From: Candidatus Magasanikbacteria bacterium GW2011_GWC2_37_14 | Lineage (GTDB): Bacteria > Patescibacteriota > Patescibacteriia > Magasanikbacterales > UBA922 | Length of the DNA: 63,794 bases | NCBI GenBank assembly: GCA_000990355.1 | Contig: LBSX01000011.1 | Coordinates: 1-63,794, forward strand | Reading direction: 5' to 3' | Shown: positions 4,025 to 61,944 of the stretch, piece after piece | Numbering within the stretch: position 1 is the first letter of the stretch | Layout of the letters: every line of letters starts with the position of its first letter | Notes under the pieces: generated by a model | Seen by the model: the letters and a program-made list of their open reading frames with translations, nothing else | What the model was told of the DNA's origin: nothing | Database searches by the model: none | Position numbers and translations under genes: made by a program

Positions 4025-4079
4025 TTGACCATAATTCCTTAATATGGTATACTGTAAATACTTAACTAAACCATATTAA
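4025..4079 (+). promoter_or_regulatory. Sigma70-type promoter with overlapping 10-bp inverted repeat (putative operator) for the Fic gene
   Basis: TTGACC (4025-4030), a 17-nt spacer, then TATACT (4048-4053). The inverted repeat is TTAATATGGT (4039-4048) and ACCATATTAA (4070-4079). Confidence 0.6.
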
Positions 4080-4089
4080 ACATTTTCTT

Positions 4090-9024: not shown

Positions 9025-9040
9025 CTCCGCCCTGTCGACC

Positions 9041-9064
9041 CCTCCCGACCAGTTTGTCGGGAGG
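9041..9064 (+). terminator. G+C hairpin after the island ORF (CCTCCCGAC-CAGTTT-GTCGGGAGG)
   Basis: Perfect 9-bp stem with no strong U-tract. The host AAAAACACCCC...GGGGTGTTTTT hairpin (9086-9153) follows. Confidence 0.45.
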
Positions 9065-9163
9065 CTGTGTGACTAAAGTTATACCAAAAACACCCCGTCC
9101 CTCGTTTACTTCTCAATAGCTGGGAATTAAACCAAGGAGTTTGGGGTGTTTTTTATTTTTATA

Positions 9164-10810
9164 TTATTTAGCCGCCGCCTTGATAAACTCTCTAAACAAT
9201 GGGTGTGGACGCATGGGTCGAGATTTAAATTCGGGATGAAATTGAGTACCGACAAAAAATGGATGGTTTTTTAATTCCACAATTTCTACCAAACCTGATT
9301 CAGGATTAATACCCACGACTTGCAAACCAGCTTTTTCCATTGCATCTTGATAATCATTATTAAATTCATAACGATGACGATGACGTTCGGAAACCTGCCT
9401 GCCGGCAGGCAGGTCCTTTTCAATATTATAAGCATTAAACACTTTTGTTCCTGGCTTTAAAACACAATCATAAGCCCCCAAACGCATAGTGCCACCATAA
9501 CGATTCTGACGCACATTTTCTGCCTGTTTTGGATTAATATGAATCACCGGGTTTTTGGTTTCGGGATTAACTTCTACAGTATGGGCATCTTTTTTATTTA
9601 AAACATCACGCACAAATTCAATCGTAGCCAATTGCATACCATAGCACAAACCCAAATAAGGAATTTTATTTTCACGAGCAAATTGAATAGCTTTAATAAT
9701 TCCTTCTACCCCACGAGTACCAAATCCACCTGGCACCAAAATACCATTATATTTTTTAAGTTCTTTAATTTTGTTTTTATTTTTCTCAAATTCTTCACTA
9801 TCTACCCAATCCATTTCCACTTTTACATTATTGGCCCAAGCACCGTGTTTTACTGCTTCAATTACCGAGATATAAGAATCAGACAAAGTATAACTTCCTG
9901 TACTAAAATATTTACCCACCACGGCAATTTTTATAATTTTTTTGCCATTTTGAATTTTTTTGTACAAATTATTCCAAGCCAATAAATTAGTTTTTCTTGA
10001 TTTTATATTTAAAATTTTAAGTAATTTGTTACCAACTTCTTGTTCTTCCAAAACCAAAGGAATTTGGTAAATAGATTTTACATCTGGTGCCGAAATACAG
10101 TTATCTTTACTAATGTTACAAAACACGGCTAATTTTTCTCGGCGTGGCTTATCCAAAACAAACGGACCACGAGCCACAATAATATCGGCATTTAAACCCA
10201 CAGAGTTAAGTTCGCGCACTGCATGTTGGGTGGGTTTAGTTTTCATTTCACCCAAGTGCCCCGGCACTGGCATATAACTAACCAAAATAATGGCTACATC
10301 ATCTGGCTTTTCTAATTTCATTTTACGAGCTGCTTCCAAAAATAAAATATTTTCATATTCACCCACTGTACCACCAATTTCTATAGTAGAAATATCTGCT
10401 TTATGTAATTCGGCAGCAGTTTTGATGCGACGAATTATTTCTTCGGGGATATGAGGAACCACTTGAACACAACGGCCTTTGTACTTCATGGCTCGCTCAT
10501 TTTCTATTACCGAAGTGTAAACGCGTCCAGTGGTCATATAATTTTCCGAATTCAAATCTTCATCCAAAAATCTTTCGTAATTCCCCATGTCTTGGTCAGT
10601 TTCATCACCATCGTCGGTTACAAACACTTCACCGTGCTCCACAGGATTCATGGTTCCCGCATCTACATTTATATAAGGGTCAGCTTTCAAAGCCGTAACC
10701 GAAAAACCCTTGGCTTTAAAAATAGCTCCAAGTGATGCCGAAGTTACACCCTTGCCTACTCCAGAAAGAACACCCCCTACCACGAAAATATATTTACGAA
10801 TTTTTTTCAT
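9164..10810 (-). CDS. pyrG: CTP synthase
   Basis: N-terminus KYIFVVGGVLSGVGKGVTSASLG. Glutamine amidotransferase region GLCYGMQ and RHRHRYEFN. Full length, 548 aa. Confidence 0.95.
   Translation of the reverse strand: MKKIRKYIFVVGGVLSGVGKGVTSASLGAIFKAKGFSVTALKADPYINVDAGTMNPVEHGEVFVTDDGDETDQDMGNYERFLDEDLNSENYMTTGRVYTSVIENERAMKYKGRCVQVVPHIPEEIIRRIKTAAELHKADISTIEIGGTVGEYENILFLEAARKMKLEKPDDVAIILVSYMPVPGHLGEMKTKPTQHAVRELNSVGLNADIIVARGPFVLDKPRREKLAVFCNISKDNCISAPDVKSIYQIPLVLEEQEVGNKLLKILNIKSRKTNLLAWNNLYKKIQNGKKIIKIAVVGKYFSTGSYTLSDSYISVIEAVKHGAWANNVKVEMDWVDSEEFEKNKNKIKELKKYNGILVPGGFGTRGVEGIIKAIQFARENKIPYLGLCYGMQLATIEFVRDVLNKKDAHTVEVNPETKNPVIHINPKQAENVRQNRYGGTMRLGAYDCVLKPGTKVFNAYNIEKDLPAGRQVSERHRHRYEFNNDYQDAMEKAGLQVVGINPESGLVEIVELKNHPFFVGTQFHPEFKSRPMRPHPLFREFIKAAAK
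9393..9414. repeat. 22-bp perfect palindrome ACCTGCCTGCCGGCAGGCAGGT inside pyrG
   Basis: Translated in frame as LPAGRQV just before the conserved ERHRHRYE. The same palindrome family occurs at about 6135-6185, 6600-6625, 26322-26345 and 51165-51195. Confidence 0.8.
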
Positions 10811-10860: not shown

Positions 10861-11500
10861 AACAACCACCGGCCTTAGGGCCGGTGGCTTTGTTTTTGCC
10901 GGCTTAATCGCCGGCAGGGTGGCGTTTGCTTTAGTTAAGGATTTTGTCGAAGAGAGAGGGTTGTTCTACTTCGTTGTGATGTTCTTGGTGAGTGACGTAA
11001 CGACGGATGACATACTCATCAATGCCAATTGTTGAAACAAAGTAACCTCTAGCCCATAATGATTCTTTCTCGTACAACCCATGTTTACGTTTAATCTTTT
11101 TCTTAAGCCAGGCTGAGGATTTACCTTTGATAATTTGCATGGTATACGAGATTGAATCGCGTGGTGTGGTTAAGAGACACATGTGTATATGGTCTTCTTG
11201 AATATTAAGCTCAATTATCTCCCAATGTTTCCATTTGCAAATTGACTCAAATATTCTTCGTAGTTCTTGTTTGATCTTCTCTGCCCCCAATACTTTACCA
11301 CGGTATTTAGGTGTCCACACTAGATGGTACTTTAAATCGTAAAAACAATGTGATAATGTACGGATAGTACGTTTGTGTTGTTTCATAGACGTATGAATTG
11401 TTAGTTACTAAAGCCACCCTGCCGGGTGGCTTTAGTATACGACGTTGTCTTCAAACGTACACCCCAGCTACGCTGGGGGTTTTTAGGATAATAAAAAACC
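10861..11500 (-). mobile_element. IS200/IS605-family element carrying tnpA only
   Basis: The Y1 transposase ORF is flanked by subterminal hairpins: CCACCGGCC..GGCCGGTGG and GCCGGC..GCCGGC at 10866-10915, and AAAGCCACCC..GGGTGGCTTT and CCCCAGC..GCTGGGG at 11410-11480. Exact ends are not determined. Confidence 0.7.
10931..11386 (-). CDS. tnpA: IS200/IS605 family Y1 (HUH) transposase TnpA
   Basis: Motifs YHLVWTPKYR, the HUH motif HIHM in EDHIHMCLL, and a catalytic Tyr region YVIRRYVTHQE. Typical size of 151 aa. Confidence 0.9.
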   Translation of the reverse strand: MKQHKRTIRTLSHCFYDLKYHLVWTPKYRGKVLGAEKIKQELRRIFESICKWKHWEIIELNIQEDHIHMCLLTTPRDSISYTMQIIKGKSSAWLKKKIKRKHGLYEKESLWARGYFVSTIGIDEYVIRRYVTHQEHHNEVEQPSLFDKILN

Positions 11501-21453: not shown

Positions 21454-22668
21454 TTAATGTTTCCACCACTTCCTCATTTCTCGCCAACTTACTCTTCTTA
21501 TTTCTTTTATCTTTTTCCTTTTTATTTTTAACTGGTCAAAATTTTTATAAAGTTCTCCTAAACCTTTTAAAACTTGTCTATCAAACAATAAAAAATATAC
21601 AAACTTCTTTAATTCATACCATTTTATAAACGGCAAGTCAAGTAGATAATTTTGCCAATACTCATTTTTTATTAAAGTCATTAAATGATTTTTGTAACTG
21701 TGATATTTTACCCAGGATGACTGTTGTTTTTTATTGGCAATAGCGATTGAATCACCAAGATTTTCTGGACCAGCTGCCGAACGATCGTGATATGCAACGG
21801 CATTTAACAATACATACGCTTTGTGCCCGGCCAAACGTAAACGATAAGCCAAATCCACATCTTCTTTATAAGAACCATAAGTTTCATCAAACAAACCAAT
21901 CTCGTCAATTACCGATTTTCTAAACATTGGCAGAGCGCCAGAAACTCCGAAAACTTCTGCACTGTCATTGCGAGTCACGCCCGAGCGTGACGTGGCAATC
22001 CCCTGCTTCATCGGGATTGCTTCGTCAGCCTTTTTGTCGGCTTCCTCGCAATGACACGATGACCAATCTTCGCCTGCGTTTAATTCAACCACTCGTCTAT
22101 TCCTTAAAACCTTTAAGCCAAGGGTGTCAATTTGGTTGGTAAAACTTTTTTCAATGTCCCCCTCTTTCCAAGAGGGGGTAGGCCTGCCCGACATGCCGTC
22201 AAGGCAGGCGGAGGGAGTTGCCGAGGTTTGCCCAAACTCCGGCAAACTCTCCCGGCCTGTGGGCCACCCTCTCTTGGTAAGAGAGGGACAACTAAAATCC
22301 CATTTCATTAATCTTGGACTTACCACTGCTACTTCACTACTACTATTCATAAATTCAACCAACTTTTCCAAACAATCTGGCATTAAAAACATGTCTTGAT
22401 TAAGTAACAATACATATTCTGTTTTACAATCCACAATCAACTGATTATGACCACCAGCAAAACCTTTATTTTCTTTATTGATAATTAATTCATATTCAAC
22501 AGGAAAATTTTGTAATTCAATTTTTATTTTTTCTACCGTATCATCTGTAGAAGCATTATCTAAAATAATTAATTTATAATTATTAAAAGTCTGTTTTCTT
22601 AGAGAATCAAAAAGATACGGAATATATTTGTTACCGTTCCAAGTGAGTAAGTGTATTGCTAGTTTCAT
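21454..22668 (-). CDS. Family 2 glycosyltransferase carrying about 220 nt of in-frame palindromic-element insertions
   Basis: GT2 motifs are LTWNG...LIILDNASTDDT and YKEDVDLAYR. The middle (GWPTGRESLPEFGQTSATPSACLDGMSGRPTPSWKEG... CHCEEADKKADEAIPMKQGIATSRSGVTRNDS) is encoded by repeats at about 22159-22290 and 21964-22055. Confidence 0.8.
   Translation of the reverse strand: MKLAIHLLTWNGNKYIPYLFDSLRKQTFNNYKLIILDNASTDDTVEKIKIELQNFPVEYELIINKENKGFAGGHNQLIVDCKTEYVLLLNQDMFLMPDCLEKLVEFMNSSSEVAVVSPRLMKWDFSCPSLTKRGWPTGRESLPEFGQTSATPSACLDGMSGRPTPSWKEGDIEKSFTNQIDTLGLKVLRNRRVVELNAGEDWSSCHCEEADKKADEAIPMKQGIATSRSGVTRNDSAEVFGVSGALPMFRKSVIDEIGLFDETYGSYKEDVDLAYRLRLAGHKAYVLLNAVAYHDRSAAGPENLGDSIAIANKKQQSSWVKYHSYKNHLMTLIKNEYWQNYLLDLPFIKWYELKKFVYFLLFDRQVLKGLGELYKNFDQLKIKRKKIKEIRRVSWREMRKWWKH
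21964..22055. repeat. GTCATTGCGAG...CTCGCAATGAC palindromic element (about 90 bp family)
   Basis: Same family as 37535-37611, 47167-47250 and 50631-50724, with a partial copy at about 6195-6245. Shared core GGCAATCC...GGATTGCTTCG. Confidence 0.8.
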
Positions 22669-27426: not shown

Positions 27427-29727
27427 TTATTTCGTATTCTTTTTCAAGTCTTCTTGCCAGACGAACAAATTACCAATTTCCACAGGCTGACTGCCAAACA
27501 ATTCACCATTCTTATGTCTTAAGTCTTCTGTCATCTGTCCGGATACAAACCAACAATTCTCTGACCTAGTTTTTTCATGTGCTAATTTTAAAATGCTTTC
27601 CCGAGGATTATTTAGCATTTCATTATACATAATAGTTAATTCTGGTTGTCCAAACTGAGCATCAATTGGAAATCCTCCACCCACAATTTGCTTGGCACTT
27701 ACGGCTTCTAGTGGCAACAAAACCCAGGTGTCGGCAAGGATACAATGCTCCATGTTTCCCTCCCCTACAAGGGGAGGGTTAGGTCTACCTGCCGACGAGG
27801 CAGGGTGGGTTTTCGTTTCATCATTCCAAAGATAATTCGCCACAGCCAATTCATCTTTACTTACCACTCTTGAATCTGGGCCACTAGCATAAGTAAAAGT
27901 TACAAACCAACTAAATATTATTACAAAAATAATCAAAATTATTTTTTTAAAATATTTAATATTTAATATTGAATATTTTGATATTTTTTCTATTAAAAAT
28001 ATTATTCCTTGAATAACAAAAATAATTAATAACAAAGATAGAACCATGTCCAATCTTCTGGTAAACAAGCGGTCACCATCTAAAACAAACCAACCAATTA
28101 AATAACCACCAAACACGGTAGAAAATAACAAACCAATAGTTTGAATTTTAGATTCTACATTTTTAAATATTTTATAAATACCTCCACCTACAAATAACCA
28201 CAAAATTATCATCGCCGGAATTAACCACCAACGCCAAACATTAAAAATATTACCCACAAAAGCGTAATCTGGTGTGTGATTAAAAATTAAATTACCACTT
28301 AAAATATCGTGAGGTCGTACAGCACTAGCCGTAAACCAACCACTAAATTGACCAAGCAGTTGTTTAAAATTTTGCCATAAATTAAAATTTTCTGGAGTAA
28401 AACTAATTTTACTTACAAGTTCAATAATGGGAATAATAAAAATACTAGCAAAAATCAGCACGGTCCAACTAATTTTATTTTTTAAACTATTTTCTTGATT
28501 ATGTTTTAAATAATTAACAATAAATCCAAATAAAACAAAAATCCAAGTTAAAATAAAATACAAAGAATAATTAAAAATCATCAAAACACTTAGGAACATT
28601 GCCAAACGTTTTTGCGAACGATAATGATCACGCCAATATTGTAGCCACAAAATTAACACAAAAAGAAAACCTAGAAAACCCAAACTTACTGGCAGAGTAA
28701 AACTTGCCATAGCTTGTAAAGGAAAGGGTAAAAATGACAACCAGACTAACCACAAACCTTTGCGCCGGGAATTAAAAATTAAAGAACCCAAACGATAAAA
28801 TAAAAACGGTGTAAACAAAGACCACAAAATTGGCATTAGCCACAGATTAATATTCAAAACACTTATACTCAATGTTTCACTAAGTAAAACTGTTGTCCCC
28901 CACAAATAACCATAACTATACTTATGCGGAATTAAAAAAGCCTCGGGCAAATCCACCCCCACTACCTCGCGCCATTTGGCTGATTCCCCTACCAACACTG
29001 GCAATTCCAATCCACCATTGATAATTTTATTTTCTACCGCCACGTGACGCCAAACATCCCCGCCCCAGGGGTTAAGATGCGACATTGGTAAATAAACATG
29101 CAATAAAAATGACTGAAAAACCAAAATCCAAAGTATTGTCCGCAAACTAAATTTTGAAAAAAGAAAAATCCCCGACAAAATTAAACTAACAAAAAATAAT
29201 GGTAAAAAATAAACGCTTATTTCTTGCCAAGGCGAAAGCAACACCCCGCTAGCTTGTTTAGAATGCAACACAAACAAAGCACCAATAAAAACTACCAAAT
29301 ACAAAATCAAAAACCAAAAAGGTTTACCAAATAAAATTATTTCTTCATTTTCACTTTCAAAACTATTTTCAGGTTCTTTAATTTTTTTCTTATTCAAATT
29401 ATAAAACAACAGACTTACAATTGCCGTTAAAATAAAGCACAGCCAAATTAAAAATGACGTCAGTGTATAATAAATTATAAAAATAGCGCTAAAAATTGCC
29501 AACAAATTAAAAACGGTAAACAAACTAAAAACTTTGTTTAGGATTTGCGTGTTGTTAATGGCCAATACTCGCCGCCAAATTGTTTGCCAATAAGGGACAA
29601 CAATAAACAAATAACAGATAACAGATAACAGGCCAACAAATAAGTTGTGCCAAAACAAAAGTTGGAAATACAACAAAAACAAAGTTACCAATAAACCCAA
29701 TAAACGCCAATATTTGCTTTGGAGCAT
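27427..29727 (-). CDS. Large polytopic membrane protein (766 aa), putative GT-C-type glycosyltransferase or polymerase
   Basis: More than 15 hydrophobic segments plus a C-terminal soluble domain. The function call is from context only. An in-frame repeat insertion (THPASSAGRPNPPLVGEGNMEH) is encoded at about 27757-27812. Confidence 0.45.
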   Translation of the reverse strand: MLQSKYWRLLGLLVTLFLLYFQLLFWHNLFVGLLSVICYLFIVVPYWQTIWRRVLAINNTQILNKVFSLFTVFNLLAIFSAIFIIYYTLTSFLIWLCFILTAIVSLLFYNLNKKKIKEPENSFESENEEIILFGKPFWFLILYLVVFIGALFVLHSKQASGVLLSPWQEISVYFLPLFFVSLILSGIFLFSKFSLRTILWILVFQSFLLHVYLPMSHLNPWGGDVWRHVAVENKIINGGLELPVLVGESAKWREVVGVDLPEAFLIPHKYSYGYLWGTTVLLSETLSISVLNINLWLMPILWSLFTPFLFYRLGSLIFNSRRKGLWLVWLSFLPFPLQAMASFTLPVSLGFLGFLFVLILWLQYWRDHYRSQKRLAMFLSVLMIFNYSLYFILTWIFVLFGFIVNYLKHNQENSLKNKISWTVLIFASIFIIPIIELVSKISFTPENFNLWQNFKQLLGQFSGWFTASAVRPHDILSGNLIFNHTPDYAFVGNIFNVWRWWLIPAMIILWLFVGGGIYKIFKNVESKIQTIGLLFSTVFGGYLIGWFVLDGDRLFTRRLDMVLSLLLIIFVIQGIIFLIEKISKYSILNIKYFKKIILIIFVIIFSWFVTFTYASGPDSRVVSKDELAVANYLWNDETKTHPASSAGRPNPPLVGEGNMEHCILADTWVLLPLEAVSAKQIVGGGFPIDAQFGQPELTIMYNEMLNNPRESILKLAHEKTRSENCWFVSGQMTEDLRHKNGELFGSQPVEIGNLFVWQEDLKKNTK

Positions 29728-32880: not shown

Positions 32881-32890
32881 ATACACAAAC

Positions 32891-33016
32891 GTAAACCCTC
32901 CCCTCGTAGGGAGGTGTCCCGATTCGCATCGGGACGGTGGGGTTCGTTGTACTAACATGAACCCCCACCCTCCGACTGCGACGTCGGAGGACTCCCCCTA
33001 CGAGGGGGAGGTTTAC
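32891..33016. repeat. 126-nt G+C-rich cluster of palindromes that can fold as a four-way junction
   Basis: Outer about 20-bp helix GTAAACCCTCCCCTCGTAGGG with CCCTACGAGGGGGAGGTTTAC. Three abutting hairpins at 32916-32935, 32936-32969 and 32970-32989. The outer arms can alternatively form local hairpins. Confidence 0.6.
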
Positions 33017-33023
33017 CAAACAA

Positions 33024-33122
33024 AAAACCCCAGCTCCACTACGTTGCGCCGGGCAGGCTAGTAAACTTTGTTAAAAAGATAGTCTAGCTTGCCAGGCGCA
33101 GTGAAACGGAGACTGGGGTTTT
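33024..33122 (+). terminator. Extended imperfect hairpin with U-rich tail
   Basis: AAAACCCCAGCTCC pairs with GGAGACTGGGGTTTT, and GCGCCGGGCAGGCTAG pairs with CTAGCTTGCCAGGCGC. Followed by TTTTGTGTTTT. Confidence 0.4.
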
Positions 33123-33285
33123 GTGTTTTCAACTATTTATAATAATTTTATAAACACTTGAGTCACCCTTGGTCCTCCAAGGCCAAGGTGCTCCTAAGTT
33201 AATAGGAAAAGAACGAGAAAGAAAGAACGTGGATTATTTTGCCCCGGAGCTGGGGCACAAGGTGGGATGGGGAAAGGCCTTGTCG

Positions 33286-34197
33286 TCAGGGCTGTTGATC
33301 GCGTTCGACGCTGATCAAGGTCGGAGCGGCATCTTTGAGTTTGCCATCCCCGTATGCCTCGACAACCGTAGCCATAGGGAATCGATCTTGGTCTATCGGT
33401 AAGCGGTAATGAACGAGCACATAGTTGAACCCGACTATGTGAACTTGTTCCACGCTCGTCCGAAGCAAGATCTCGTCGGGGTTGTTTTTCCACAAGGTCA
33501 GCTGCCAATCGTGGTGACTGATGTTGTAAAATATTACCCCGTAGAAAAGCGTGGAGTTGTTGAGCACGATGACCGGTTGGCCGAGCAGGTTCTGGTCCAG
33601 GTCCACCCAGTCCAGGTCTCCGGGTTCGTTTTCGGGATTGCGCCGCGGAAGCTCGAGCACCATCTGCATTTCTTCTTTTTCGAACTTCCATAGGTAGTGC
33701 GAGGTCAAGGCGTAGACCTTGCCCTCGACCTCGTACCAAACGAGTACCCGCTCGTTCACGGGCAAGTTTTTCTCGTTGCCCGGGAATACACCTTTACACA
33801 TGGACCCAAACGACGACAAGGTGTAAAGTCGTTCAGCTTTGGGCAGCTCGATCCATTCGTTGTTGATCTCGAAATGGTCTTCGAACTTGTAGGTCATTTC
33901 TTGCGACACCTCGATCTTTTGGCCACTCTGCGTCGTGTAGGTCAAGATGCGGTAGAACCTGTCTGGAATTTGGCTGGCTCTGAGAACCACCGGTTCTCTG
34001 TTCCAATCCAGGTAAGTCATCACCGGCTTCAAGCGCCGGGGCACGACCCAGTTCGAGTTGTCCTTCGGGCCGTGCAAGGGCACGACCCAGGACTCGTTCT
34101 GGCCGGTCAGCTCGAAGCCGCGATTGACCATGGTCGAACCGCAGCCACCACACACCAGCGCCAAGCCCAGGATCACGAGCGCGACGAACGTCTTCAT
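33286..34197 (-). CDS. Orphan secreted/lipoprotein-like protein (303 aa) in a G+C-rich island
   Basis: GGAGG lies 5 nt before the ATG. Signal peptide MKTFVALVILGLALVCGGCG. 39/60 G+C at 33601-33660. Hairpin GCCCCAGCTCCGGGGC after the stop. No recognisable domain. Confidence 0.7.
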   Translation of the reverse strand: MKTFVALVILGLALVCGGCGSTMVNRGFELTGQNESWVVPLHGPKDNSNWVVPRRLKPVMTYLDWNREPVVLRASQIPDRFYRILTYTTQSGQKIEVSQEMTYKFEDHFEINNEWIELPKAERLYTLSSFGSMCKGVFPGNEKNLPVNERVLVWYEVEGKVYALTSHYLWKFEKEEMQMVLELPRRNPENEPGDLDWVDLDQNLLGQPVIVLNNSTLFYGVIFYNISHHDWQLTLWKNNPDEILLRTSVEQVHIVGFNYVLVHYRLPIDQDRFPMATVVEAYGDGKLKDAAPTLISVERDQQP

Positions 34198-34453
34198 GAC
34201 GTCCTCCGTTTGCTGTACCCCACACGCCAGTGCAGGACAGCATAGCGAACATTAAGAAACAAAGCAAAGGCTGTTTCGAAGCCTGTTCCTCTTTGTAAAA
34301 GAGCGAAAAAAGTGCTCAACAAAACAATTTTTTCGCTTTTTTACAGCTTAATTTTAAACAGTTCATTATAGCACAAAAAAGACCTTTTGTCAAGGCCTTT
34401 GTGCACAGTTGATAATAAATTTTGGCTTAAATTAGCTGTTTCTGGATTAACAG

Positions 34454-34826
34454 CAACCCCGGCAACTCCCCCTACCCCCTCTTGGTAAGAGGGGGATGAC
34501 AACAACGTTCACTCGTTCGTTCACGCGCGCACAAACACAAGGTAAAAATTTAGTGGCGAGTATGAGTGATCCTTCGGAGCTCTTTAGCGAAGAAGGATTT
34601 GCTCGTTTAGAGCCGAGCTTTCTCGGCTCGCACGAGCAAAAACGAATGACGAGGCGAAGTTTTTACTCCACTTTTTTGAAAAAGTGGAAGTAAGAGTAAT
34701 TGGACGATTTCTGGATTCCTGTCTGCACAGGAATGACAAACTACTACCCCTCCTTAATCCTCCCCTTATAAAGGGGAGGAAAACCAACCCCAGCAAACTC
34801 CCCCTACCCCCTCTTGGTAAGAGGGG
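34454..34826. repeat. Repeat-dense segment bounded by about 41-bp direct repeats
   Basis: CAACCCC(G/A)GCA(A)ACTCCCCCTACCCCCTCTTGGTAAGAGGGG at 34454-34494 and 34785-34826. The interior is a chain of short hairpins (GAGCCGAG..CTCGGCTC, CTCCACTTTTT..AAAAAGTGGAG, GGATTCCTGT..ACAGGAATGAC, CCTCCCC..GGGGAGG). Confidence 0.75.
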
Positions 34827-34832
34827 AAAAAA

Positions 34833-35900
34833 TTAAGTAAACCGCTTCATTCTCTTTACCAACTCTTCCAAATCCCCTGGCTTAAAGAGCCAAGCATTTT
34901 CATTAACCGTTAAAAGCTCTCGCACTCCCCCAGTATCCGAGGCAATAATATAAAAACCATTTTGCAAAGCCTCCAAAATTACTTTGGGGCGATTTTCCAA
35001 ACAAGTGGAAGTAAATAATAATACTTGGCATTTTTCATACACGCGTGCCAAATCTTCTCTTTCTAATCTTCCATAAATATTTACATTATTAAATTCTTGC
35101 GACCACAATTCTACCAAGGGCAAAAGTTCGCCATCACCCACAATGTGTAAATTGGCGCGACCACTAATGCTTTCCCAAGCTTGTAACAGTAATTCCACAC
35201 CTTTGTGTTTGACCAAAGAACCAACAAACAAAAAATCAGTTACTTCGGGCAATTCTTTAGGTAAACGTAAAACCATTTTTTCATTTTTGGTTTCCCAACG
35301 ACTGCCTGGAAAAAACTTTTTAAACCAATAAAATTCTTCTAAAAATTTTGATAAAGCAATTACTACTTCGGGTCGGCCAAATTTCTTTTTCATTAAAAAA
35401 CCATAAAACTTTTGGCTAAATTTTAGTTTTTCACCCGGCCAAGCAATTACGCCACTCGGTTCAATTAATTGCACGTCGTGTAAATAATGAACCTGCTTTA
35501 TCCCTATTTTCTGAATTATTTTTGGAATACCAAAACCAATACCAGTTAAATTGTGTGTCCAAACTTCGTCGGGACGTTCTTTTTTTAAAATATCTTTTAC
35601 TTCTTTGTTTAACCAAAAATTAAAAATATCAAAAAAATGCCAAATTAATTTGGTAAGCAAACCATGCTTGGCCAAATCTTTATACCAAAAAATATTTGGC
35701 TGCCAAAGTCGATAAATAGTTACTTTGCCATCTTTGCCAGCCACAGGGTGAATGTAAGACCAACCTTGATAAGGCCGAGCAGTAATAATCATTACTTGCT
35801 GGCCTTGACTAACGAGTTCAACGGCTTGTTCTTCCACAAAGCGTTCCGTGCCACCCACTGCATAAGGCGGATAAAGATTGTTGATTAAACAAATTTTCAT
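34833..35900 (-). CDS. Family 4 (group 1) glycosyltransferase
   Basis: N-terminus KICLINNLYPPYAVGGTERFV. C-terminal E..P.V.LEA...G..IIAS..GG..E motif (ENRPKVILEALQNGFYIIASDTGGVRE). Confidence 0.85.
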   Translation of the reverse strand: MKICLINNLYPPYAVGGTERFVEEQAVELVSQGQQVMIITARPYQGWSYIHPVAGKDGKVTIYRLWQPNIFWYKDLAKHGLLTKLIWHFFDIFNFWLNKEVKDILKKERPDEVWTHNLTGIGFGIPKIIQKIGIKQVHYLHDVQLIEPSGVIAWPGEKLKFSQKFYGFLMKKKFGRPEVVIALSKFLEEFYWFKKFFPGSRWETKNEKMVLRLPKELPEVTDFLFVGSLVKHKGVELLLQAWESISGRANLHIVGDGELLPLVELWSQEFNNVNIYGRLEREDLARVYEKCQVLLFTSTCLENRPKVILEALQNGFYIIASDTGGVRELLTVNENAWLFKPGDLEELVKRMKRFT

Positions 35901-36095
35901 GTTAAGGTATAAGGTGTAAGCTATAAGGTATAATGAGGAAATTATACCTTAAATTTGAATTATTTTAAACATATCAACATCTAATGCACAATAACAACCA
36001 TCCTCATACTTGAAATATTTTGCTAATTTAGCTACTATACACGGGCTACTGACAGATCAATCATAAGTCTTATACCTTAAGTCCTTACACCTGTT

Positions 36096-37529
36096 ATGGA
36101 TATTACCCAAATAGAAAAAATTCCTCCACAAAACCTAGAAGCCGAAATGTCACTCTTGGGCTCTATTTTGATTGACAAAGATGCCATGTACAAAATTGCC
36201 GACATTGTGGAAACAGAAGATTTTTACAAAAATGCCCATGCCACTATTTATGAAGCAATAATTGAATTGTACACTAAAAATGAACCAATTGATGTTTTGA
36301 CTCTTGGTAACCGTTTGGAAGAATTAAAAGCTTTGGAAAAAATCGGTGGTCGCAGTTATTTAATTAATCTTTCCAATACTGTTCCAACTTCTTCTCATAT
36401 TGTAGAATATGCCAAAATTGTTCATCGCAAATCCACTCTGCGCAAGCTTTTGGGTGCGGCTAGTGAGATTACTAAATTGGGTTATAAAGAAGACACCGAA
36501 ACAGTAGAAGAAGTATTAGACGAAGCTCAACAACAATTATTTAGTGTTACCCAAAAACATTTAAAAAAAACTTTTGTCCCCATTAGAAATGTTTTGAGTG
36601 ATGCTTTTGAACGCATTGATGAACTGCATCGTGAAAAAGGTAAATTACGTGGCTTGCCCACTGGTTTTAAAACTTTGGATAATTTATTGGCCGGTTTTCA
36701 AAAATCCGATTTAATTATTTTAGCTGCTCGCCCTAGTGTAGGAAAAAGTTCTTTGGCTATGGACTTTGCCCGAAATGTAGCTATCCGCGCCAAAACACCA
36801 GTGGGAATATTTTCTTTGGAAATGAGTAAAGAACAGCTAGTAGATCGTTTGCTTTGTGCCGAAGCTGGAGTAGATTTGTGGAAAATGCGTACTGGTAACT
36901 TGTCCGATCGGCCAGACAGCAATGATTTTCCCCGGATTGGCCATGCTATGGGTGTATTATCCGAAGCGCCAATTTATTTGGATGACGCGCCAAACAACAA
37001 TGTCATGCAGATTCGTACCAAGGCTCGCCGTTTACAAGCCGAACATGGTTTGGGTTTAATTATAATTGACTATTTACAATTAATGGAATCACACCACAGT
37101 CGTGGTGGCGACAATCGCGTGCAAGAAGTAGCCGAAATTACCAGAGGTTTAAAAGGTATTGCTCGTGAATTAAATATTCCGGTTTTGGCACTTTCACAGC
37201 TGTCACGTAGTGTGGAACAAAGCAAACCCGCTATTCCAAAATTATCCCATTTACGTGAGTCAGGTTCTATTGAACAAGATGCCGACGTAGTAATGTTTAT
37301 TTATCGTAAATCCGCTGATCGTAATTATAATTTAGAAGAAATTCCCCCTGATGAACGTAATATTGCCGAAATTCATATTGCCAAACACAGAAATGGTCCA
37401 ACTGGTTTGGTGCGTTGCTATTTTGATGACACTCGCGCCAGCTTTAGAAATTTGGATACAGAATTTAGTGGTTTTAATACTACACCTACACCAATCACCC
37501 CAGTTAAACCCGCCATCCCTGCTTTTTAA
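36096..37529 (+). CDS. dnaB: Replicative DNA helicase
   Basis: N-terminus PPQNLEAEMSLLGSILID, Walker A ARPSVGKSSLAM, and the IIIDYLQLM and SQLSR motifs. Confidence 0.95.
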   Translation: MDITQIEKIPPQNLEAEMSLLGSILIDKDAMYKIADIVETEDFYKNAHATIYEAIIELYTKNEPIDVLTLGNRLEELKALEKIGGRSYLINLSNTVPTSSHIVEYAKIVHRKSTLRKLLGAASEITKLGYKEDTETVEEVLDEAQQQLFSVTQKHLKKTFVPIRNVLSDAFERIDELHREKGKLRGLPTGFKTLDNLLAGFQKSDLIILAARPSVGKSSLAMDFARNVAIRAKTPVGIFSLEMSKEQLVDRLLCAEAGVDLWKMRTGNLSDRPDSNDFPRIGHAMGVLSEAPIYLDDAPNNNVMQIRTKARRLQAEHGLGLIIIDYLQLMESHHSRGGDNRVQEVAEITRGLKGIARELNIPVLALSQLSRSVEQSKPAIPKLSHLRESGSIEQDADVVMFIYRKSADRNYNLEEIPPDERNIAEIHIAKHRNGPTGLVRCYFDDTRASFRNLDTEFSGFNTTPTPITPVKPAIPAF

Positions 37530-45622: not shown

Positions 45623-45640
45623 AATTTCACTAATTTCTTA

Positions 45641-45723
45641 ACACAGATAGCACAGATAAATAAATAGACAAGCATTTTATTTATTTGATAATCTGTGTGA
45701 TCTGTGTCAAAAAATCTGTGTTT
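45641..45723 (-). promoter_or_regulatory. Array of five ACACAGAT-type repeats upstream of mraZ (candidate MraZ operator)
   Basis: On the + strand, CACAGAT occurs twice (45642-45657) and its complement ATCTGTG three times (45691-45720), giving dyad symmetry around an AT-rich spacer. TTGACA overlaps on the minus strand. Confidence 0.4.
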
Positions 45724-46041
45724 ACTTTTCCCCATTTTTCCCCACGTACTACCATTATAATCCACTTGGCTAGATAAAGCAAGGGTTTTATCCCACTTTA
45801 TCCACAGCGTAAAAGGCCTACGGCCTTACGCTACAGGCACCCTTCCTCCCCCTGCCCGAGATGGAGGTTAGGAGGGCGTGGGAGAAACCTCTTAAGTCTT
45901 TATCAATTGCCTATCCGGGCAAAATGAATATTAATAGTTTAGCGTAAAAAAATTATAAGGCGTTGACAAACCGAACAAAACAGCGTAGTGTATTTAGCAG
46001 TAGTCGACCGCCACCAAAAACAACGCAAGCCGGGGGATTCC

Positions 46042-46383
46042 ATGACAAAGCTGATGCTGGACCTGATTGCCCTGTTCGTACTGCTCCTGAAGGGCGAGGC
46101 CGACCGCGACGCGTTCGACGACAAGCTCAACGAGTACTTCCTGGCCAAGGCCGAGGCCGATGGCGCCACCGCGGGCCACACCGAGACACTGGAAGTGCCC
46201 GCCGCGCCGACCCCGGCCAACCTGACCGCCGACGGCATGGACGCGCCGGTCGAAGCCACCGACGCGCCCGAGGCCGAAGCCGCCGAAGCCGAAGTGCCCG
46301 TCGTGCTCGACGAAGCGCCCGCCGAGGTCGCCGCCGAAGAAGCGCCCGTCGCCGAGGCCACCGAGGCCACCGTCGTCGCGTAG
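46042..46383 (+). CDS. Orphan 113-aa protein with N-terminal hydrophobic helix and Ala/Glu/Pro-rich low-complexity tail, in a G+C-rich island
   Basis: TTGACA-17 nt-TAGTGT at 45965-45993 and GGGGGA 6 nt before the ATG at 46042. 44/60 G+C at 46141-46200. Hairpin GCCC-TTCC-GGGC directly after the stop. The track ORF starts earlier (45988). Confidence 0.5.
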   Translation: MTKLMLDLIALFVLLLKGEADRDAFDDKLNEYFLAKAEADGATAGHTETLEVPAAPTPANLTADGMDAPVEATDAPEAEAAEAEVPVVLDEAPAEVAAEEAPVAEATEATVVA

Positions 46384-46644
46384 GCCCTTCCGGGCTGAAG
46401 GATCACCAACCCTCAGCTGAGTGGCGATCCAACGCGACATGTTCTGACTACACTCGTAAATGAAGGATACTTGGCGGTTGACTGAATTTACGAGCCCAAA
46501 TGGGGGGATGGAGGGAGACGATGAACCGGAGGGTTCAACGTCATGTTCGAGGCAGATGTTCGTCGTCTGTCTCCGTTCCAGTGAATATTTTTAAAAAGTA
46601 TTTAGTGGAAAACAAAAAATCTACCAACTAGGTAGATTTTTTGT

Positions 46645-48147
46645 TTATATAATAATTTTCCTTAGACTTCTTTGATACTTAATCGCAAAGCGATGAGCTT
46701 CATCACGTACACGAATTAATAGATCTTTATTACTATTTATCCATTTAACAATTTCTCTATTTCGTAATTTCGAAATTTTCGGATTTCGTACATATATAAA
46801 ATCGTTCTTTTTTCTTTCTGGTCCTTTAGCTATGCCAACAACTGGTATTGTTTGTCCCCTCCTGCCCGAGGAGGGGTGACCCAACGTCGCAGTTGGGTCG
46901 GGGTGGTGGGAGAGAATTTTACAAACTCGATTTACTTGTGGCACTCCCCCATCAACCAAAATTACTTGGGGTATTCCCCACTCGTTGTGCTTAAGACGCC
47001 TCTCAATAACTTCGGCAAGACAATCCACATCACTTTGTCCCACAACAGTTTTAATTTTAAATTTTCGATATTCTTTCTTATTTGGTTCACTATTTTCAAA
47101 CACTACCATACTACCAACTTTTCCAGAGCTTCCTAAATTTGAAATGTCATACCCTTCAATACGCATGTCATTGCGAGCCTCGCTCGAGCGAGGCGTGGCA
47201 ATCCCTTGCTTAGGTGGGATTGCTTCGTCGCTAAGGCTCCTCGCAATGACAGGTGACTCGACAAAACTTTTATTTAGAAGCGCAATATCTTGAATTTTTT
47301 GTAAATTTTTAATTTGATCACGCAATCTTCCTGCTTCTTCAAACTCGTGATTTTTAGAAGCCCGCTTCATGTCGTACTCTAAATTTTTTAATAAACTTTT
47401 TTTCTTACCATTCAAAAATTGCACTAACGGCTTAATTACTTTCTTTTTGTATTCGGCCGAACTTATTTCTCCAGTGCATACACCCAAACACTGACCTAGT
47501 TGATAATAAAAACAAGGTTTTTTTGGTAGAGACGCAAAATTTTGCGTCTCTACGCGAGGTATACATGTAGAAATATAAAATAATTTACGAAGCAAGTTTA
47601 TCATTTCTTTGGTTTTAAGACCTGGATATGGACCAAATAATAACCCCCCTCGCCCCCCTTTACCAAGGGGGGTAAGTGAACGTACTTTTTTCCCCCCCTT
47701 ATTAAAGGGGGGTTGGGGGGTTGTTGGCAATTTCAATTCATGCTCACGAACAGTTAAAACTTTAGGAAATTTATCATCAGTAATAACAATATAATTCCAA
47801 CTTTTATCATCTTTCAAATCAACATTGTATTTTGGCTGAATTTTTTTAATGGTGTTTGCTTCCAAAATTATTGCTTCTAGTACAGAATCTGTTTGAATAG
47901 TTTTAATATCTACTACTTCATGAATCATTTGTTCAATCGGACGTCTAACAAGCGTCATCCCCGCGTAGGCGGAGATCTTATTTGGCTGCAAGATTCCCGC
48001 TTTCGCGGGAATGACGCCACGAAAATAACTTCTCACTCTATTTCTCAAACTCGTCGCCTTGCCCACATAAATCAATTTTTTTTTGATATTATAAAAAAGA
48101 TAAATACCGGAACGATCTGATAAATTTTTTAGTTTATTTTCTAACAT
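46645..48147 (-). CDS. uvrC: Excinuclease ABC subunit C, interrupted in frame by at least five palindromic elements
   Basis: GIY-YIG motif SGIYLFYN...IYVGKATSLRNRVRSYF, UvrBC motif and Endo V-like region. Repeat-encoded stretches are [83 protein letters not shown] and HPDPTATLGHPSSGRRGQ. Confidence 0.9.
   Translation of the reverse strand: MLENKLKNLSDRSGIYLFYNIKKKLIYVGKATSLRNRVRSYFRGVIPAKAGILQPNKISAYAGMTLVRRPIEQMIHEVVDIKTIQTDSVLEAIILEANTIKKIQPKYNVDLKDDKSWNYIVITDDKFPKVLTVREHELKLPTTPQPPFNKGGKKVRSLTPLGKGGRGGLLFGPYPGLKTKEMINLLRKLFYISTCIPRVETQNFASLPKKPCFYYQLGQCLGVCTGEISSAEYKKKVIKPLVQFLNGKKKSLLKNLEYDMKRASKNHEFEEAGRLRDQIKNLQKIQDIALLNKSFVESPVIARSLSDEAIPPKQGIATPRSSEARNDMRIEGYDISNLGSSGKVGSMVVFENSEPNKKEYRKFKIKTVVGQSDVDCLAEVIERRLKHNEWGIPQVILVDGGVPQVNRVCKILSHHPDPTATLGHPSSGRRGQTIPVVGIAKGPERKKNDFIYVRNPKISKLRNREIVKWINSNKDLLIRVRDEAHRFAIKYQRSLRKIII
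47167..47250. repeat. GTCATTGCGAG...CTCGCAATGAC element inside uvrC
   Basis: 84 bp, read through in frame. Nearly identical over its first 50 nt to 50631-50680 in uvrA. Confidence 0.85.
47953..48016. repeat. CGTCATCCCCGCG...CGCGGGAATGACG element inside uvrC
   Basis: 64 bp, in frame. Same family as 49463-49527 (uvrA), 37929-37995 and 57946-58010 (intergenic). Confidence 0.85.
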
Positions 48148-48359: not shown

Positions 48360-51149
48360 CTATAAAACACGCTTTAGGTATTCACCAGTGTAACTACCTT
48401 TTTTACAAGAAACTTCTTCTGGTGTGCCAGTTGCTACCAATTCTCCGCCCTTATCGCCACCTTCAGGTCCAAGATCAATAATCCAATCAGCACATTTAAT
48501 TACATCCAAATTGTGTTCAATTACCATGACAGTATTACCTTGATTAACTAAACGCTCTAACACGACTAATAATTTTTTTACATCTTCATAATGCAAACCA
48601 GTAGTAGGTTCATCCAATAAATACAATGTTTTGGTGGTACCGTGTTTAGCCAATTCACGCGAGAGTTTGATGCGTTGAGCTTCGCCACCCGACAAAGTTG
48701 TAGCCGATTGTCCCAAAGTTAAATAATCCAAACCAACTTCATTTAGAATTTTCAATTTATCATAAATCATCGGAATGTCTTTAAAAAATTCCTCAGCATC
48801 TTCAATAGTCATGGCCAACACTTCGGCAATATTTTTTTCTTTAAAATATATGTCCAGAGTTTCTTGATTAAATCTTTTGCCTTTACAAATATCACAAACA
48901 ATTTCTACACTTGGTAAAAAATGCATTTCTATTTCCAAAGTACCACGACCACTACAATTCTCGCACCTACCACCACTAACATTAAAGCTAAAACGCCCAG
49001 ATTTAAAGCCTTTCATTCTGGCTTCGGGAGTTTCGGCAAACAATTCACGAATATGATCATAAGCTTTGGTATAAGTAGCCGGGTTGGAACGCGGAGTACG
49101 ACCAATTGAACTTTGGTCAATGGTAATCATGCGATCCAAATATTCTGTACCGGTTAAACTTTTATGCTCTCCCACTGGTTTATGCATTCGAAATAAACGA
49201 TTATTTATTTCTTTGTACAAAATATCGTGCATTAGGGTAGATTTGCCCGATCCTGAAACACCAGTTAAACAAACAAAACGTCGCAAAGGTATTTCCACAC
49301 TAATATTTTTTAAGTTATGTTCAGTTGCTCCTTTAATTTTTAATTTTGGAGTAGCCGCATCAACTTTTCGTCTCTTTTCGGGAATGGGAATTTTTATTTC
49401 TCTACGCAAATATTTTCCTGTAAGGGATTTTGCCGGGTCACCAAAAATTTTACAATCAATGGCGTCATCCCCGCGTAGGCGGGGATCTTTTTTTGTTTGT
49501 AAGATTCCCGCTTTGGCGGGAATGACGCTAATAAGATTTTCTTTAGTTCCTGAATATACAATCTCTCCCCCATGTTTACCTGCTCCTGGACCAAAATCCA
49601 CTACCCAATCACTAGCCAAAATTGTGTCTTCATCATGTTCTACCACAATTATAGTATTACCCACATCACACAAATTTCGTAATGTTTTTACCAAACGATC
49701 ATTATCTTTTTGATGGAGTCCAATAGTTGGTTCGTCTAATACATATAAGGCGCCAACTAATTTAGTCCCCACTTGTGAAGCCAAACGGATGCGCTGGGCC
49801 TCTCCACCACTCAAAGTTCCGGCACGTCGATTTAAAGTTAAATAATGTAAACCTACGTCATACATAAATTGCAAACGATTGGCAATTTCTTTTAAAACTG
49901 CTCCAGCAATTTCTTGTTCTCGGGGTGGCAAATTAATTTCTGTTTCCGCAAAAAATTCTCTGGCTTCGGCAATTGGCAAACTAGTAACTTCAAAAATATT
50001 TTTTTCATTAACTTTTACACTTAAAGCATTTTCGTTTAGACGTTTACCCAAACATTTAGGACAAACTTCTTCGGAAAATAATTCTTTGGTGCCCAAACCT
50101 GTACAATGTTCACAATAACCATAGGGGCTGTTAAAACTAAACAAACGTGGTTCAATTTCGGGAAAACTAAAACCATCATTAGGACAAGAATATTCTGTAC
50201 TAAAAATTTGTTCTTTTGGCTTACCCTGAGCAGAGTCGAAGGGATAAATAATTGTGCAAAGACCTTTTGATAATCCCACTGCTGTTTCCACTGCCTCGGC
50301 AAGACGCCCAATAATCTCGAGCGACGAAGCGAGAGATCCCTTTTCTTTGGGTTTTAAATCATCTTTACTACTATCTTTCTTTAATGCAATTGCAGTTGCT
50401 TTGGAAAGGGATTCCTCGTCGCCTGTGGGCTCACTCGGAATTACCAGACGATCAACAACCACTTCAATAGTATGTTTTTTATCTTTTACCAAAACAATTC
50501 TTTCCTTTAAACTTTTCATTTTTCCGTCTACTCTTACTTCAAGAAAACCTGAATTATACAAATCATAAAGCATTTGATAATACTCCCCTTTTCTTCCTCG
50601 TACCACTGGAGCAAGTATTATCAATTCACTGTCATTGCGAGCCTCGCTCGAGCGAGGCGTGGCAATCCCTTTCTTAGTCTGGGATTGCTTCGTCAGCACC
50701 TCCCCGGCGCTTCCTCGCAATGACGCACTAATTCGCTCCACCATTTCGTCGGTTGTCATTTTTTCTATTTTTGTACCACAAAGTGGACAATGAGGTTCAC
50801 CAATTCTGGCATATAAAACACGAAGATAGTCATAAATCTCGGTAATAGTCGCCACTGTAGAGCGCGGATTGGCACTATGAGCTTTTTGATCAATGGAAAT
50901 TGCCGGCGATAAACCAGTTATTTCATCAACATCGGGTTTTTGCATACCACCCAAAAATTGCCGAGCATAGGCAGACAATGATTCTATATATCGACGTTGA
51001 CCTTCGGCAAAAATTGTATCAAAAGCTAGAGAAGATTTTCCCGAACCAGAAAGCCCTGTAAACACAATCATTTTGTTACGTGGCAACTCTAAATCAACAT
51101 TTTTTAAATTATGTTCTCGTGCGCCTTTAATAATAATTTTATTTTGCAT
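48360..51149 (-). CDS. uvrA: Excinuclease ABC subunit A, with two in-frame palindromic-element insertions
   Basis: Two ABC modules ([14 protein letters not shown] and [10 protein letters not shown]; LSGGEAQR twice) and zinc fingers. Start moved to MQNKIII (51149) because upstream codons lie in a repeat. Confidence 0.95.
49463..49527. repeat. CGTCATCCCCGCG...GGCGGGAATGACG element inside uvrA
   Basis: Encodes [22 protein letters not shown] in frame. Confidence 0.85.
50631..50724. repeat. GTCATTGCGAG...CTCGCAATGAC element inside uvrA
   Basis: Encodes [33 protein letters not shown] in frame. Confidence 0.85.
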
Positions 51150-51424
51150 AACAACTGTCATCTTGAATTTACCTGCCTATCGGCAGACAGGTTTCAGGAT
51201 CTTTCCTAAAATTATACTTATTTAGACGTTTTTTAACTGTCAAAAGATGCTGAAACAAGTTCAGCATGACAAACAAAAAACCAAAAACACCTCTTTCCGA
51301 GGTTTAACTAAAAATATATAAAAAGAACATAGCCTAAATCAATGCTATTATTATACCAAACTAGTATGTTTTGTCAATTATTGATTTTGTATTATAATAT
51401 AAATAATCTTAAATATCATTCATT

Positions 51425-61870: not shown

Positions 61871-61944
61871 GCACGCCTAGCTCAGTTGGTTAGAGCATCT
61901 CGTTTACACCGAGAGGGTCGAGGGTTCGAATCCCCCGGCGTGTA
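61871..61944 (+). tRNA. tRNA-Val (anticodon TAC)
   Basis: Hand-folded cloverleaf. Acceptor GCACGCC with GGCGTGT (one G-U pair), D stem GCTC/GAGC, anticodon stem TCTCG/CGAGA with loop TTTACAC, and T loop TTCGAAT. No encoded CCA. Confidence 0.85.

Follow-up and report, generated by a model that had tools for sequence, protein, structure and literature searches.

How does a gene rich in guanine and cytosine (G+C) come to stand in an AT-rich genome? This question is raised by a 1.1-kb island at positions 33165-34262 of a 63,794-nt stretch of DNA (GenBank contig LBSX01000011.1, positions 1-63,794; this whole stretch is referred to as the window) that originated from a groundwater metagenome and whose host is Candidatus Magasanikbacteria, a member of the Patescibacteria, or candidate phyla radiation (CPR). 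The best matches to the DnaB protein were found in named Magasanikbacteria genomes, with 72-79% identity. A first-pass annotation of this DNA had described the island as the gene of an orphan secreted or lipoprotein-like protein, and had suggested, as a speculation, that it was transferred very recently from a high-GC host bacterium. We compared the island with public contigs (L numbers) and with metagenome runs (X numbers, of which X1 is the source run), and on balance we lean towards another answer, namely that this is a promoter-equipped gene for an accessory envelope protein, belonging to a cassette-like GC-rich pool that circulates among AT-rich Patescibacteria or their mobile elements.

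A GC-rich island with a long coding frame

The island at 33165-34262 contains 54.2% G+C (0.542) and is the most GC-rich 1.1-kb stretch of the window, in which the mean is 36% (median 0.356, standard deviation 0.042). The count of 39 G+C among the 60 positions 33601-33660, made in the first-pass annotation, was exact, and the limits given there do enclose a region of high G+C; however, the unique GC-rich core extends only from about 33267 to 34290, and positions 33125-33266 belong to a module that is shared with other DNA. The spacer in which the island lies (32881-34832) measures 1952 nt, compared to a median spacer of 96 nt.

The list of open reading frames (ORFs) confirmed the proposed gene on the minus strand at 33286-34197, encoding 303 amino acids (aa) with the N-terminus MKTFVALVILGLALVCGGCG, and this is the true coding frame. 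Its G+C content was 0.546, and the values for the first, second and third codon positions (GC1, GC2 and GC3) were 0.556, 0.336 and 0.747, the canonical GC3 > GC1 > GC2 order of a GC-rich gene, while an open frame of at least 303 codons arose in 0 of 2000 shuffles of the island. The composition was rightly called foreign to this genome, as GC3 ranged from 0.16 to 0.38 in all 45 other genes checked, with the exception of a second island at 45988-46383. Six shadow ORFs of at least 50 aa overlap the 303-aa ORF, where five had been counted before, and the shadow frames over it contain 15-17% Arg and have a pI > 10. In the public assemblies two such shadow ORFs were called here as genes, 33194-33691 (minus strand, 165 aa) and 33833-34252 (minus strand, 136-139 aa), and because these calls took the Arg-rich shadow frames, the 303-aa protein is absent from protein databases.

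We also considered whether the island might be no gene at all, but a GC-rich non-coding element (a structured RNA) or a decayed pseudogene in which the long frame is incidental. That public gene callers skipped the 303-aa frame, that it has no homologue (see below), and that contig L019, from the nearest species representative, has a GC-rich stretch without a clear ORF would all agree with this idea. However, the codon-position pattern of G+C, the shuffle test, the presence of a ribosome-binding site, signal peptide and promoter, the lack of a match in Rfam, and the nature of the called frames, which are Arg-rich shadows, make it highly improbable.

A conserved module at the 3' boundary of unrelated GC-rich cargo

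Comparison with contig L098 and with the metagenome runs identified a conserved boundary module of about 140 nt at 33125-33266 (minus strand), which begins about 20 nt past the stop codon of the 303-aa ORF. Positions 33147-33253 (107 nt) matched a contig of another study's metagenome, after which the sequences part, and an exact-core scan of JGI metagenomes with the module returned L098, an AT-rich contig (G+C about 0.33) carrying tsf and ruvA. Positions 5903-6018 of L098 were 88% identical to the module over 120 nt, in an alignment that spans about 33125-33266 of the window. In L098 the module is again located 3' of a GC-rich island, but with a different, two-gene cargo: two minus-strand ORFs of 277 and 111 aa (GC3 of 0.72 and 0.78). 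Some 130 nt upstream of these is an extended promoter close to consensus (TTGACA-16-TAGAAT), and their leader again contains a long AT-rich hairpin. Variants of the module were present in the source run X1 (two, on contigs with depths of 10.2 and 7.2) and, from other studies, in runs X5 (three), X8 and X12, with different adjoining sequence each time; contigs with such copies measure 531 and 1035 nt in X1 and, for one of those in X5, 1194 nt, and words from the module were present in metagenomes of at least nine studies. Viral contigs did not yield the module.

The module holds the hairpins CACCCTTGG..CCAAGGTG and GCCCCGGAGCTGGGGC, and folds as two separate small hairpins (z = -2.8). The element GCCCCGGAGCTGGGGC (33241-33256) had been annotated as the terminator of the gene. 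On the gene's strand it reads GCCCCAGCTCCGGGGC and then AAAATAATCC, with no U-tract; a terminator scan did not detect GCCCCAGCTCCGGGGC, and it lies within a recurring repeat module. Searches of Rfam at gathering and E-value thresholds returned only chance-level matches to eukaryotic snoRNA and miRNA models, and inspection of both strands of the module for attC core sites found only GTTGAAA (6/7), without a partner.

Because this module of about 140 nt is common to unrelated GC-rich cargo, it points to a pool of cassettes within the Patescibacteria rather than to direct transfer from a host to its symbiont. A study of horizontal gene transfer (HGT) in groundwater Patescibacteria found that most detected transfers were within the phylum and not recent (PMC12455944), a pattern that is compatible with this picture.

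Persistence of high G+C across species

A second GC-rich island, at 45988-46383 (plus strand), lies in the spacer 45623-46644 between mraZ and uvrC and encodes an orphan of 113-131 aa (G+C 0.68, GC3 0.84-0.89). Its product has a hydrophobic N-terminus and an acidic tail rich in Ala, Glu and Pro, and its only database match was to itself; the island lies within an unbroken contig of 9.3 kb whose depth matches that of the host, and independent assemblies contain it too. A variant of it in public contigs has an extra in-frame tandem unit of 51 nt (17 aa) at 46335-46368. GC-rich islands were also found in L019 (three within 21 kb), L090 (two), L091 (one) and L098 (one). When the islands were compared with each other at the DNA and translated levels, only orthologues of a CDP-alcohol phosphatidyltransferase matched; the cargo proteins showed no mutual similarity, and with the exception of that enzyme Pfam assigned them no family. 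Membrane-spanning or signal-like hydrophobic segments were present in seven of the nine cargo proteins. No orthologue of the gene in the first island was found in the nearest or sister species.

In L019, a region of about 950 nt just upstream of dnaB (8901-9850) has a G+C content of 0.64 and no convincing ORF. It shares 53 nt (81%) with a GC-rich region of L090 (9600-10250) that is likewise upstream of dnaB and contains a basic 106-aa ORF. The L019 region had no Rfam match, and may represent a structured RNA or a cassette in decay.

The phosphatidyltransferase orthologues (L019 2621-3325, L090 3977-4819 and L091 6001-6696) stand at one and the same syntenic position in three species, beside an AT-rich paralogue with which they are 26-30% identical. 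They share 56-69% protein identity and 65-70% DNA identity with each other; among their AT-rich neighbours, the paralogue is 75-78% identical across species, and a PMT_2-type membrane protein is 29-55% identical. GC3 in the three genes is 0.58-0.70, compared to 0.16-0.37 in their neighbours, a deviation that is specific to the gene and stable. Among 38 conserved codons with four-fold degeneracy, 57% of the third bases are G or C, and all three species share the third base at only 3 of the 38; the synonymous sites are therefore saturated. Either the gene has been at a GC-rich equilibrium since before the species split, or it has repeatedly been replaced from a GC-rich pool. Under either explanation a high GC3 is no sign of recent arrival, because saturated sites in this gene are still GC-rich.

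This result bears on the origin proposed in the first-pass annotation, in which the 303-aa gene came very recently from a high-GC host or neighbour bacterium and its codon usage has not been ameliorated. Such a transfer would account for a GC3 of 0.75 next to 0.20-0.37 in host genes, for the absence of the gene from sister species, for its being known from one aquifer study only, and for an island depth about half that of the flanks, which suggests that it is not fixed in the population; transfers from other phyla into Patescibacteria have also been documented (PMC12455944). However, no homologue was found in any database searched, assemblies from the same aquifer included, and an Ala content of 3.0% and a GC2 of 0.336 are unlike a high-GC proteome. 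In this lineage GC-rich genes persist across species, so that G+C cannot date the event, and the 3' module is common to other GC-rich cargo in AT-rich genomes. Lacking a donor and a clock, with host-like amino acids and a shared 3' module, the proposed recent transfer is, in our judgement, distinctly unlikely.

The phosphatidyltransferase genes, which show a stable GC-rich equilibrium in place, also lend some credit to a quite different origin: a native, lineage-specific gene in which synonymous G+C is kept high by some force peculiar to the gene, for instance codon or mRNA selection for envelope proteins, or GC-biased gene conversion at a recombination hot spot. Host-like values of GC1 and GC2, with the anomaly mainly at GC3, are consistent with this origin, as is the fact that most of the GC-rich genes encode membrane or exported proteins. 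However, the nearest species has no orthologue, and the occurrence of the module with different cargo at different loci argues for movement. No established mechanism that we know of would raise one gene to a GC3 of 0.75 when its genome is at 0.27, and we consider a native gene rather unlikely.

Authenticity and strain variability of the island

Public contigs L004 (38.9 kb) and L006 matched the window at 100% identity over 31000/31776-34653, and L002 (30.6 kb) matched it at 100% identity over 33141-37000, save for a 29-nt indel. The names of L004 and L006 are in the style of MEGAHIT (k141), and scaffold L002 came from a different pipeline; both junctions of the island were thus bridged by independent assemblies at 100% identity. 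When contigs that carry the island were traced via the shadow-ORF products, six of six had the same Magasanikbacteria neighbours and none was GC-rich. In X1, contigs at island depth run 33095-33176-33883 into the AT-rich or repeat flank, and not into further GC-rich DNA.

These data speak to the concern that the island is an assembly chimera, in which a high-GC fragment was joined to a CPR contig via shared repeats. High-copy repeats on both sides, an island depth below that of the flanks, and the lack of coverage of 34231-34364 by X1 contigs, whose breaks fall in repeats of depth > 100, could be produced by a chimera. However, the junctions are spanned at 100% identity in three independent assemblies from two assemblers, the six contigs that carry the island all belong to CPR bacteria, the island contigs end in CPR-type repeats or AT-rich sequence, and the analogous second island lies within a single contig. 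We looked for the island on a high-GC contig with unbridged junctions, and this was not what we found. Misassembly is excluded for practical purposes, and a chimera is the least probable of the explanations considered here.

Word depth in X1 was 9.4-11.8 in the flanks, and 5.4, 5.9 and 3.4 in the island contigs. Because the depth of the island is about half that of its flanks, the island is best read as strain-variable and carried by only part of the population. GC-dependent sequencing bias was set aside as an unlikely cause of the half depth, given that the second island, at 68% G+C, stays contiguous.

In a further contig, L001, from another sample, the glycosyltransferase that stands beside the island in the window (with 1 mismatch in 7.2 kb) is connected instead to gatB, thymidylate kinase, folA and thyA, of which gatB and thyA are not in the window. 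The join (7069-7485) runs through another copy of a repeat module of about 190 nt (compare 34454-34832 of the window); it reflects either a structural variant or an error of that assembly caused by the repeat.

A proposed cassette-like pool of envelope genes

We therefore return to the reading that we favour, a promoter-equipped accessory envelope gene, located on the chromosome and drawn from a circulating GC-rich pool. Several points weigh against it. No mobilising enzyme was linked to the module, which is also without attC core sites, and no similarity was found between the ends of the resident IS200 element and the flanks of the island. Just two cassettes (those of the window and L098) have been seen in full, the other junctions being read-outs of 26-30 nt, and between these two fully sequenced cassettes only the 3' end is conserved. 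The module could merely be a common 3' untranslated region, a terminator or an insertion target, and the half depth of the island could have causes other than a presence/absence polymorphism.

If the favoured reading is correct, GC-richness would be a stable property of the cassette pool and not the mark of a recent arrival from a high-GC host. A bolder version, which we put forward tentatively and with more doubt than belief, is that AT-rich Patescibacteria (Magasanikbacteria and relatives) possess an undescribed cassette system in which small, promoter-equipped GC-rich orphan envelope genes with a 3' element of about 140 nt recombine between loci and between genomes, and in which G+C is actively maintained against the AT bias of the host. 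Under this version, GC would persist through speciation because it is actively maintained.

The 303-aa protein

The ORF begins with a predicted signal peptide, MKTFVALVILGLALVCGGCG (codons 1-20; 34138-34197, minus strand), recognised from the translation and its hydrophobicity. It consists of Lys2, a 13-residue hydrophobic core, and then Cys16 and Cys19, and residues 1-25 hold the only hydrophobic 19-mer of the protein. Because this is a single N-terminal hydrophobic segment, the protein is likely exported. The earlier description as secreted or lipoprotein-like is upheld for the signal peptide, but not for a canonical lipobox. The positive N-terminus and 7-22-residue hydrophobic core of a lipoprotein are present (Lys2, then TFVALVILGLALV), but the core does not end in the lipobox [LVI][ASTVI][GAS]C (the consensus of PROSITE PS51257): Cys16 is preceded by A-L-V (ALV-C), with Val at position -1, and Cys19 by C-G-G (CGG-C), with Cys at position -3, both of which are off consensus. 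A cut by type-I signal peptidase after G20 is equally plausible as lipobox processing. A relaxed lipobox in CPR bacteria is possible, and lipid anchoring of the protein is possible as well; Lgt and LspA were not found within the 64-kb window.

The mature part of about 33 kDa is acidic (pI 5.2), with Leu, Val, Glu and Asn as its commonest residues. Its amino-acid composition is host-like: the GARP fraction (Gly, Ala, Arg and Pro) was 0.198, compared to 0.209 +/- 0.028 in the host, and Ala and Asn made up 3.0% and 6.3%, respectively, with a GC2 of 0.336. The proteome of an organism with about 60% G+C would not look like this. No internal repeats were found in the protein, and two single-sequence runs of AlphaFold2, the structure prediction called for by the first-pass annotation, reached pLDDT (predicted local distance difference test) values of only 38.8 and 38.2, giving no more than a hint that the C-terminal half may be beta-rich.

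We searched for relatives of this protein at several levels. Pfam, NCBIfam, PHROGs and PADLOC contained no family for it, a word-indexed search of 5.8 billion protein clusters gave no match, and an exhaustive phmmer search of 1.84 billion representative proteins gave zero matches at E <= 0.001. In the PDB the only hit was 4l1n_A, at a non-significant E value of 0.27. Species genomes, JGI metagenomes and IMG/VR viral contigs, searched in translation, contained no relative, a tblastn search of phages and plasmids returned nothing, and assemblies from the same aquifer held no homologue. The protein thus deserves its earlier description as an orphan with no recognisable domain, and there was no donor taxonomy to assign. 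An identical gene in a high-GC genome, which the first-pass annotation had suggested looking for, was found neither in species genomes nor in metagenomes or aquifer assemblies; native homologues in related AT-rich genomes were likewise looked for, and none was found.

Expression signals and a proposed order of events

Upstream of the gene, the noted GGAGG proved to be part of a Shine-Dalgarno sequence, GGAGGA, located 4 nt ahead of the ATG (34202-34207, minus strand). Further upstream, at 34365-34393 on the same strand, is a perfect match to an extended sigma-70-type promoter, TTGACA-17-TGcTATAAT (12/12), from which a transcription start near 34358 and a leader of about 160 nt are predicted. 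The promoter sits in a repeat module of about 40-60 nt (34356-34416) that also occurs in other metagenomes, with different flanks and with AT-rich sequence on either side, which suggests a promoter module of general use, not one peculiar to the island. The leader contains a long AT-rich hairpin at 34294-34345, with an 18-bp stem and 2-bp extension (inverted repeat 34294-34314/34325-34345; -15.9 kcal/mol, z = -5.4). Between this and the gene, the terminator scan identified a small terminator-like hairpin (AGGCTTCGAAACAGCCT + TTGCTTTGTT; 34268-34284, minus strand), which may, speculatively, be an attenuator. The RNA runs were tiny SOLiD libraries only, and provided no coverage.

From these signals in the DNA we propose that transcription would start at the extended sigma-70 promoter (34393->34365) and pass through the hairpin-bearing leader of about 160 nt, and that translation would begin at the strong GGAGGA site. 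The product would then be exported via its N-terminal signal peptide, after which it would either receive a lipid anchor, at Cys16 or Cys19, or be cut behind Gly20. The predicted outcome is an acidic, possibly beta-rich cell-surface protein of about 33 kDa. CPR bacteria are believed to rely on contact between their own surface and a host cell, yet most of the variable proteins on that surface are poorly characterised; we would guess that the role of this protein is in surface modification, either for host attachment or for exclusion of phage or competitors.

Surroundings of the island

The island borders a cluster of genes for cell-envelope glycans, which includes five family 2 (GT2) glycosyltransferases, RmlD, a nucleotidyl transferase, epimerases and FdtA, as well as two large membrane proteins without a Pfam family, the 708-aa one of which is 32% identical to its counterpart in L019. 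The slot between the membrane protein of about 700 aa and the GT4/GT1 glycosyltransferase is variable: it measures about 190 nt in L019, contains an acetyltransferase in L090, and contains a NUDIX gene, orf127 and the island in the window.

On the left of the island is a compound palindrome of 126 nt (32891-33016), in which an outer stem (inverted repeat 32891-32911/32996-33016) surrounds three inner hairpins (-43.9 kcal/mol, z = -7.5). It is followed by an extended hairpin of 111 nt ending in a T-run (33018-33128, plus strand; inverted repeat 33018-33033/33113-33128; -35 kcal/mol, z = -7.4), with a depth of 100-157 compared to about 10 genome-wide; this hairpin is a repeat module of high copy number and looks like the terminator of the plus-strand genes that precede it. 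On the right, a cluster of short palindromic repeat modules that fold and that have depths of 50-150 lies between direct repeats of about 41 nt (34454-34826; direct repeats 34457-34494/34789-34826). The 29-nt indel falls in a repeat module here, at 34653/34654, where ACCTAAATTTTCCGTAGTGTTTGTTTAGC is present in L001, L002, L004 and L006 and missing from the window. All of the flanking palindromes, hairpins and direct repeats that had been reported were present (z = -7.5, -7.4 and -5.4). Their description as a repeat-dense landing zone is accurate in that this is the densest cluster in the window; however, it is not a unique zone, as hairpins occur window-wide, with 24 perfect hairpins with stems of at least 9 compared to 2.6 in shuffles. 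These are GC-rich, and some are inside genes.

GC-rich palindromic modules stand in frame within genes at 9393-9414, 22158-22178, 22267-22287, 27758-27778 and 47526-47553. In UvrC (46645-48147) and UvrA (48360-51161), palindromic modules add peptide inserts, for instance IPAKAGILQ and one of 13 letters. They are reminiscent of Rickettsia palindromic elements (RPE).

An IS200/IS605-family Y1 transposase is encoded at 10931-11386 on the minus strand (PF01797, 2e-33; NF033573, 127 bits with a cutoff of 55), flanked by perfect hairpins at 10866-10887 and 11406-11437, and might be what mobilises the palindromic modules found across the genome. Against the model for REP-associated transposases (REP, repetitive extragenic palindrome) it reached 35 bits, with a cutoff of 80, and it scores as IS200/IS605. 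Mobilisation of the island by this resident IS200 was considered and rejected, the ends being dissimilar; of the features of an IS200/IS605-type element, the genome has the Y1 transposase, while two conserved ends resembling those of the autonomous element were not found at the island. At 61871-63400, a large serine recombinase of 498 aa (61904-63400; Resolvase, Recombinase and Zn_ribbon_recom domains), whose 3' end overlaps tRNA-Val (61871), is the probable border of an integrated element that runs past the window. Neither enzyme was linked to the island cassette by any finding, and no recombinase was present within 10 kb on either side of the island. The tRNA at 61871 is the sole one in the window and is not at the island borders, and the 41-nt direct repeats flank the repeat cluster rather than the island. 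Elsewhere in the window, a Fic/DOC-domain protein (4090-5043, plus strand; PF02661, 6.6e-24) adjoins 1.2 kb (2879-4089) without a listed ORF of at least 150 aa.

Significance and comparison with known systems

The literature searched held no description of GC-rich cassettes of this kind. If the favoured reading is true, the boundary module would be a tractable marker for an accessory pool of surface genes, and a search with the module would find such genes. Genes that remain at 55-60% G+C through whole speciation intervals in genomes of 35% G+C break the rule that atypical GC means recent transfer. Because high GC persists through speciation, screens of CPR genomes for HGT or contamination that are based on GC need to be reconsidered. 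Gene calling in shadow frames may systematically hide the proteins of GC-rich islands when the genome bin is AT-rich.

One resemblance is to integron cassettes and clusters of attC sites lacking integron integrases (CALINs), which are likewise one- or two-gene units, often orphans, of atypical composition and found at several loci and in several genomes, and in which a conserved element of about 60-140 nt directly follows unrelated cargo, as was observed here. However, the module lacks the RYYYAAC/GTTRRRY cores and forms two small hairpins instead of one long imperfect stem, and for want of these core sites and this fold we rejected it as an attC site. Moreover, Pfam annotation revealed no IntI or other tyrosine recombinase in the window, the island cassette has its own strong promoter, and the cassettes are single and not arrayed. 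We also rejected a diversity-generating retroelement target, as the shared module is outside the ORF and there is no reverse transcriptase, and a TIGR array, as no gene for Tas or a Nop-domain protein is nearby.

Phage morons, which often encode surface proteins or lipoproteins that exclude other phages, are also self-contained transcription units of deviant composition between unrelated genes, and both a promoter and deviant GC are seen here. Unlike morons, the island is not in a prophage, its neighbours are housekeeping and envelope genes, its protein has no PHROG or phage matches, and it has a conserved 3' module instead of a simple terminator, with no canonical terminator in the scan.

Acquired genomic islets and orphans share with the island an atypical composition, absence from relatives and a variable slot beside cell-envelope genes. 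Of the usual signs of a genomic island, the deviant composition is present, but an outside donor or homologue, GC as an indicator of recency, and borders marked by an integrase, a tRNA or direct repeats are not, and there is no clear target-site duplication. The model of Lawrence and Ochman is said to set the classical expectation of amelioration for acquired genes; unlike such genes, those of this lineage have an atypical composition that is stable over speciation.

The flanks, for their part, resemble REP elements and bacterial interspersed mosaic elements (BIMEs), RPEs and repeats like miniature inverted-repeat transposable elements (MITEs) in being short, GC-rich, high-copy palindromes in intergenic clusters and in frame within genes. 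As with REP/BIME systems, the genome encodes a Y1 transposase, here of the IS200 family; unlike theirs, it is not of the REP-associated type, and its ends are unlike the island flanks. Finally, the large GC-rich (lgr) genes of Protochlamydia amoebophila are reported to be large leucine-rich-repeat paralogues, unlike the small, mutually unrelated orphans described here, and resemble these in being far more GC-rich than the AT-rich genome that carries them (PMC2216083).

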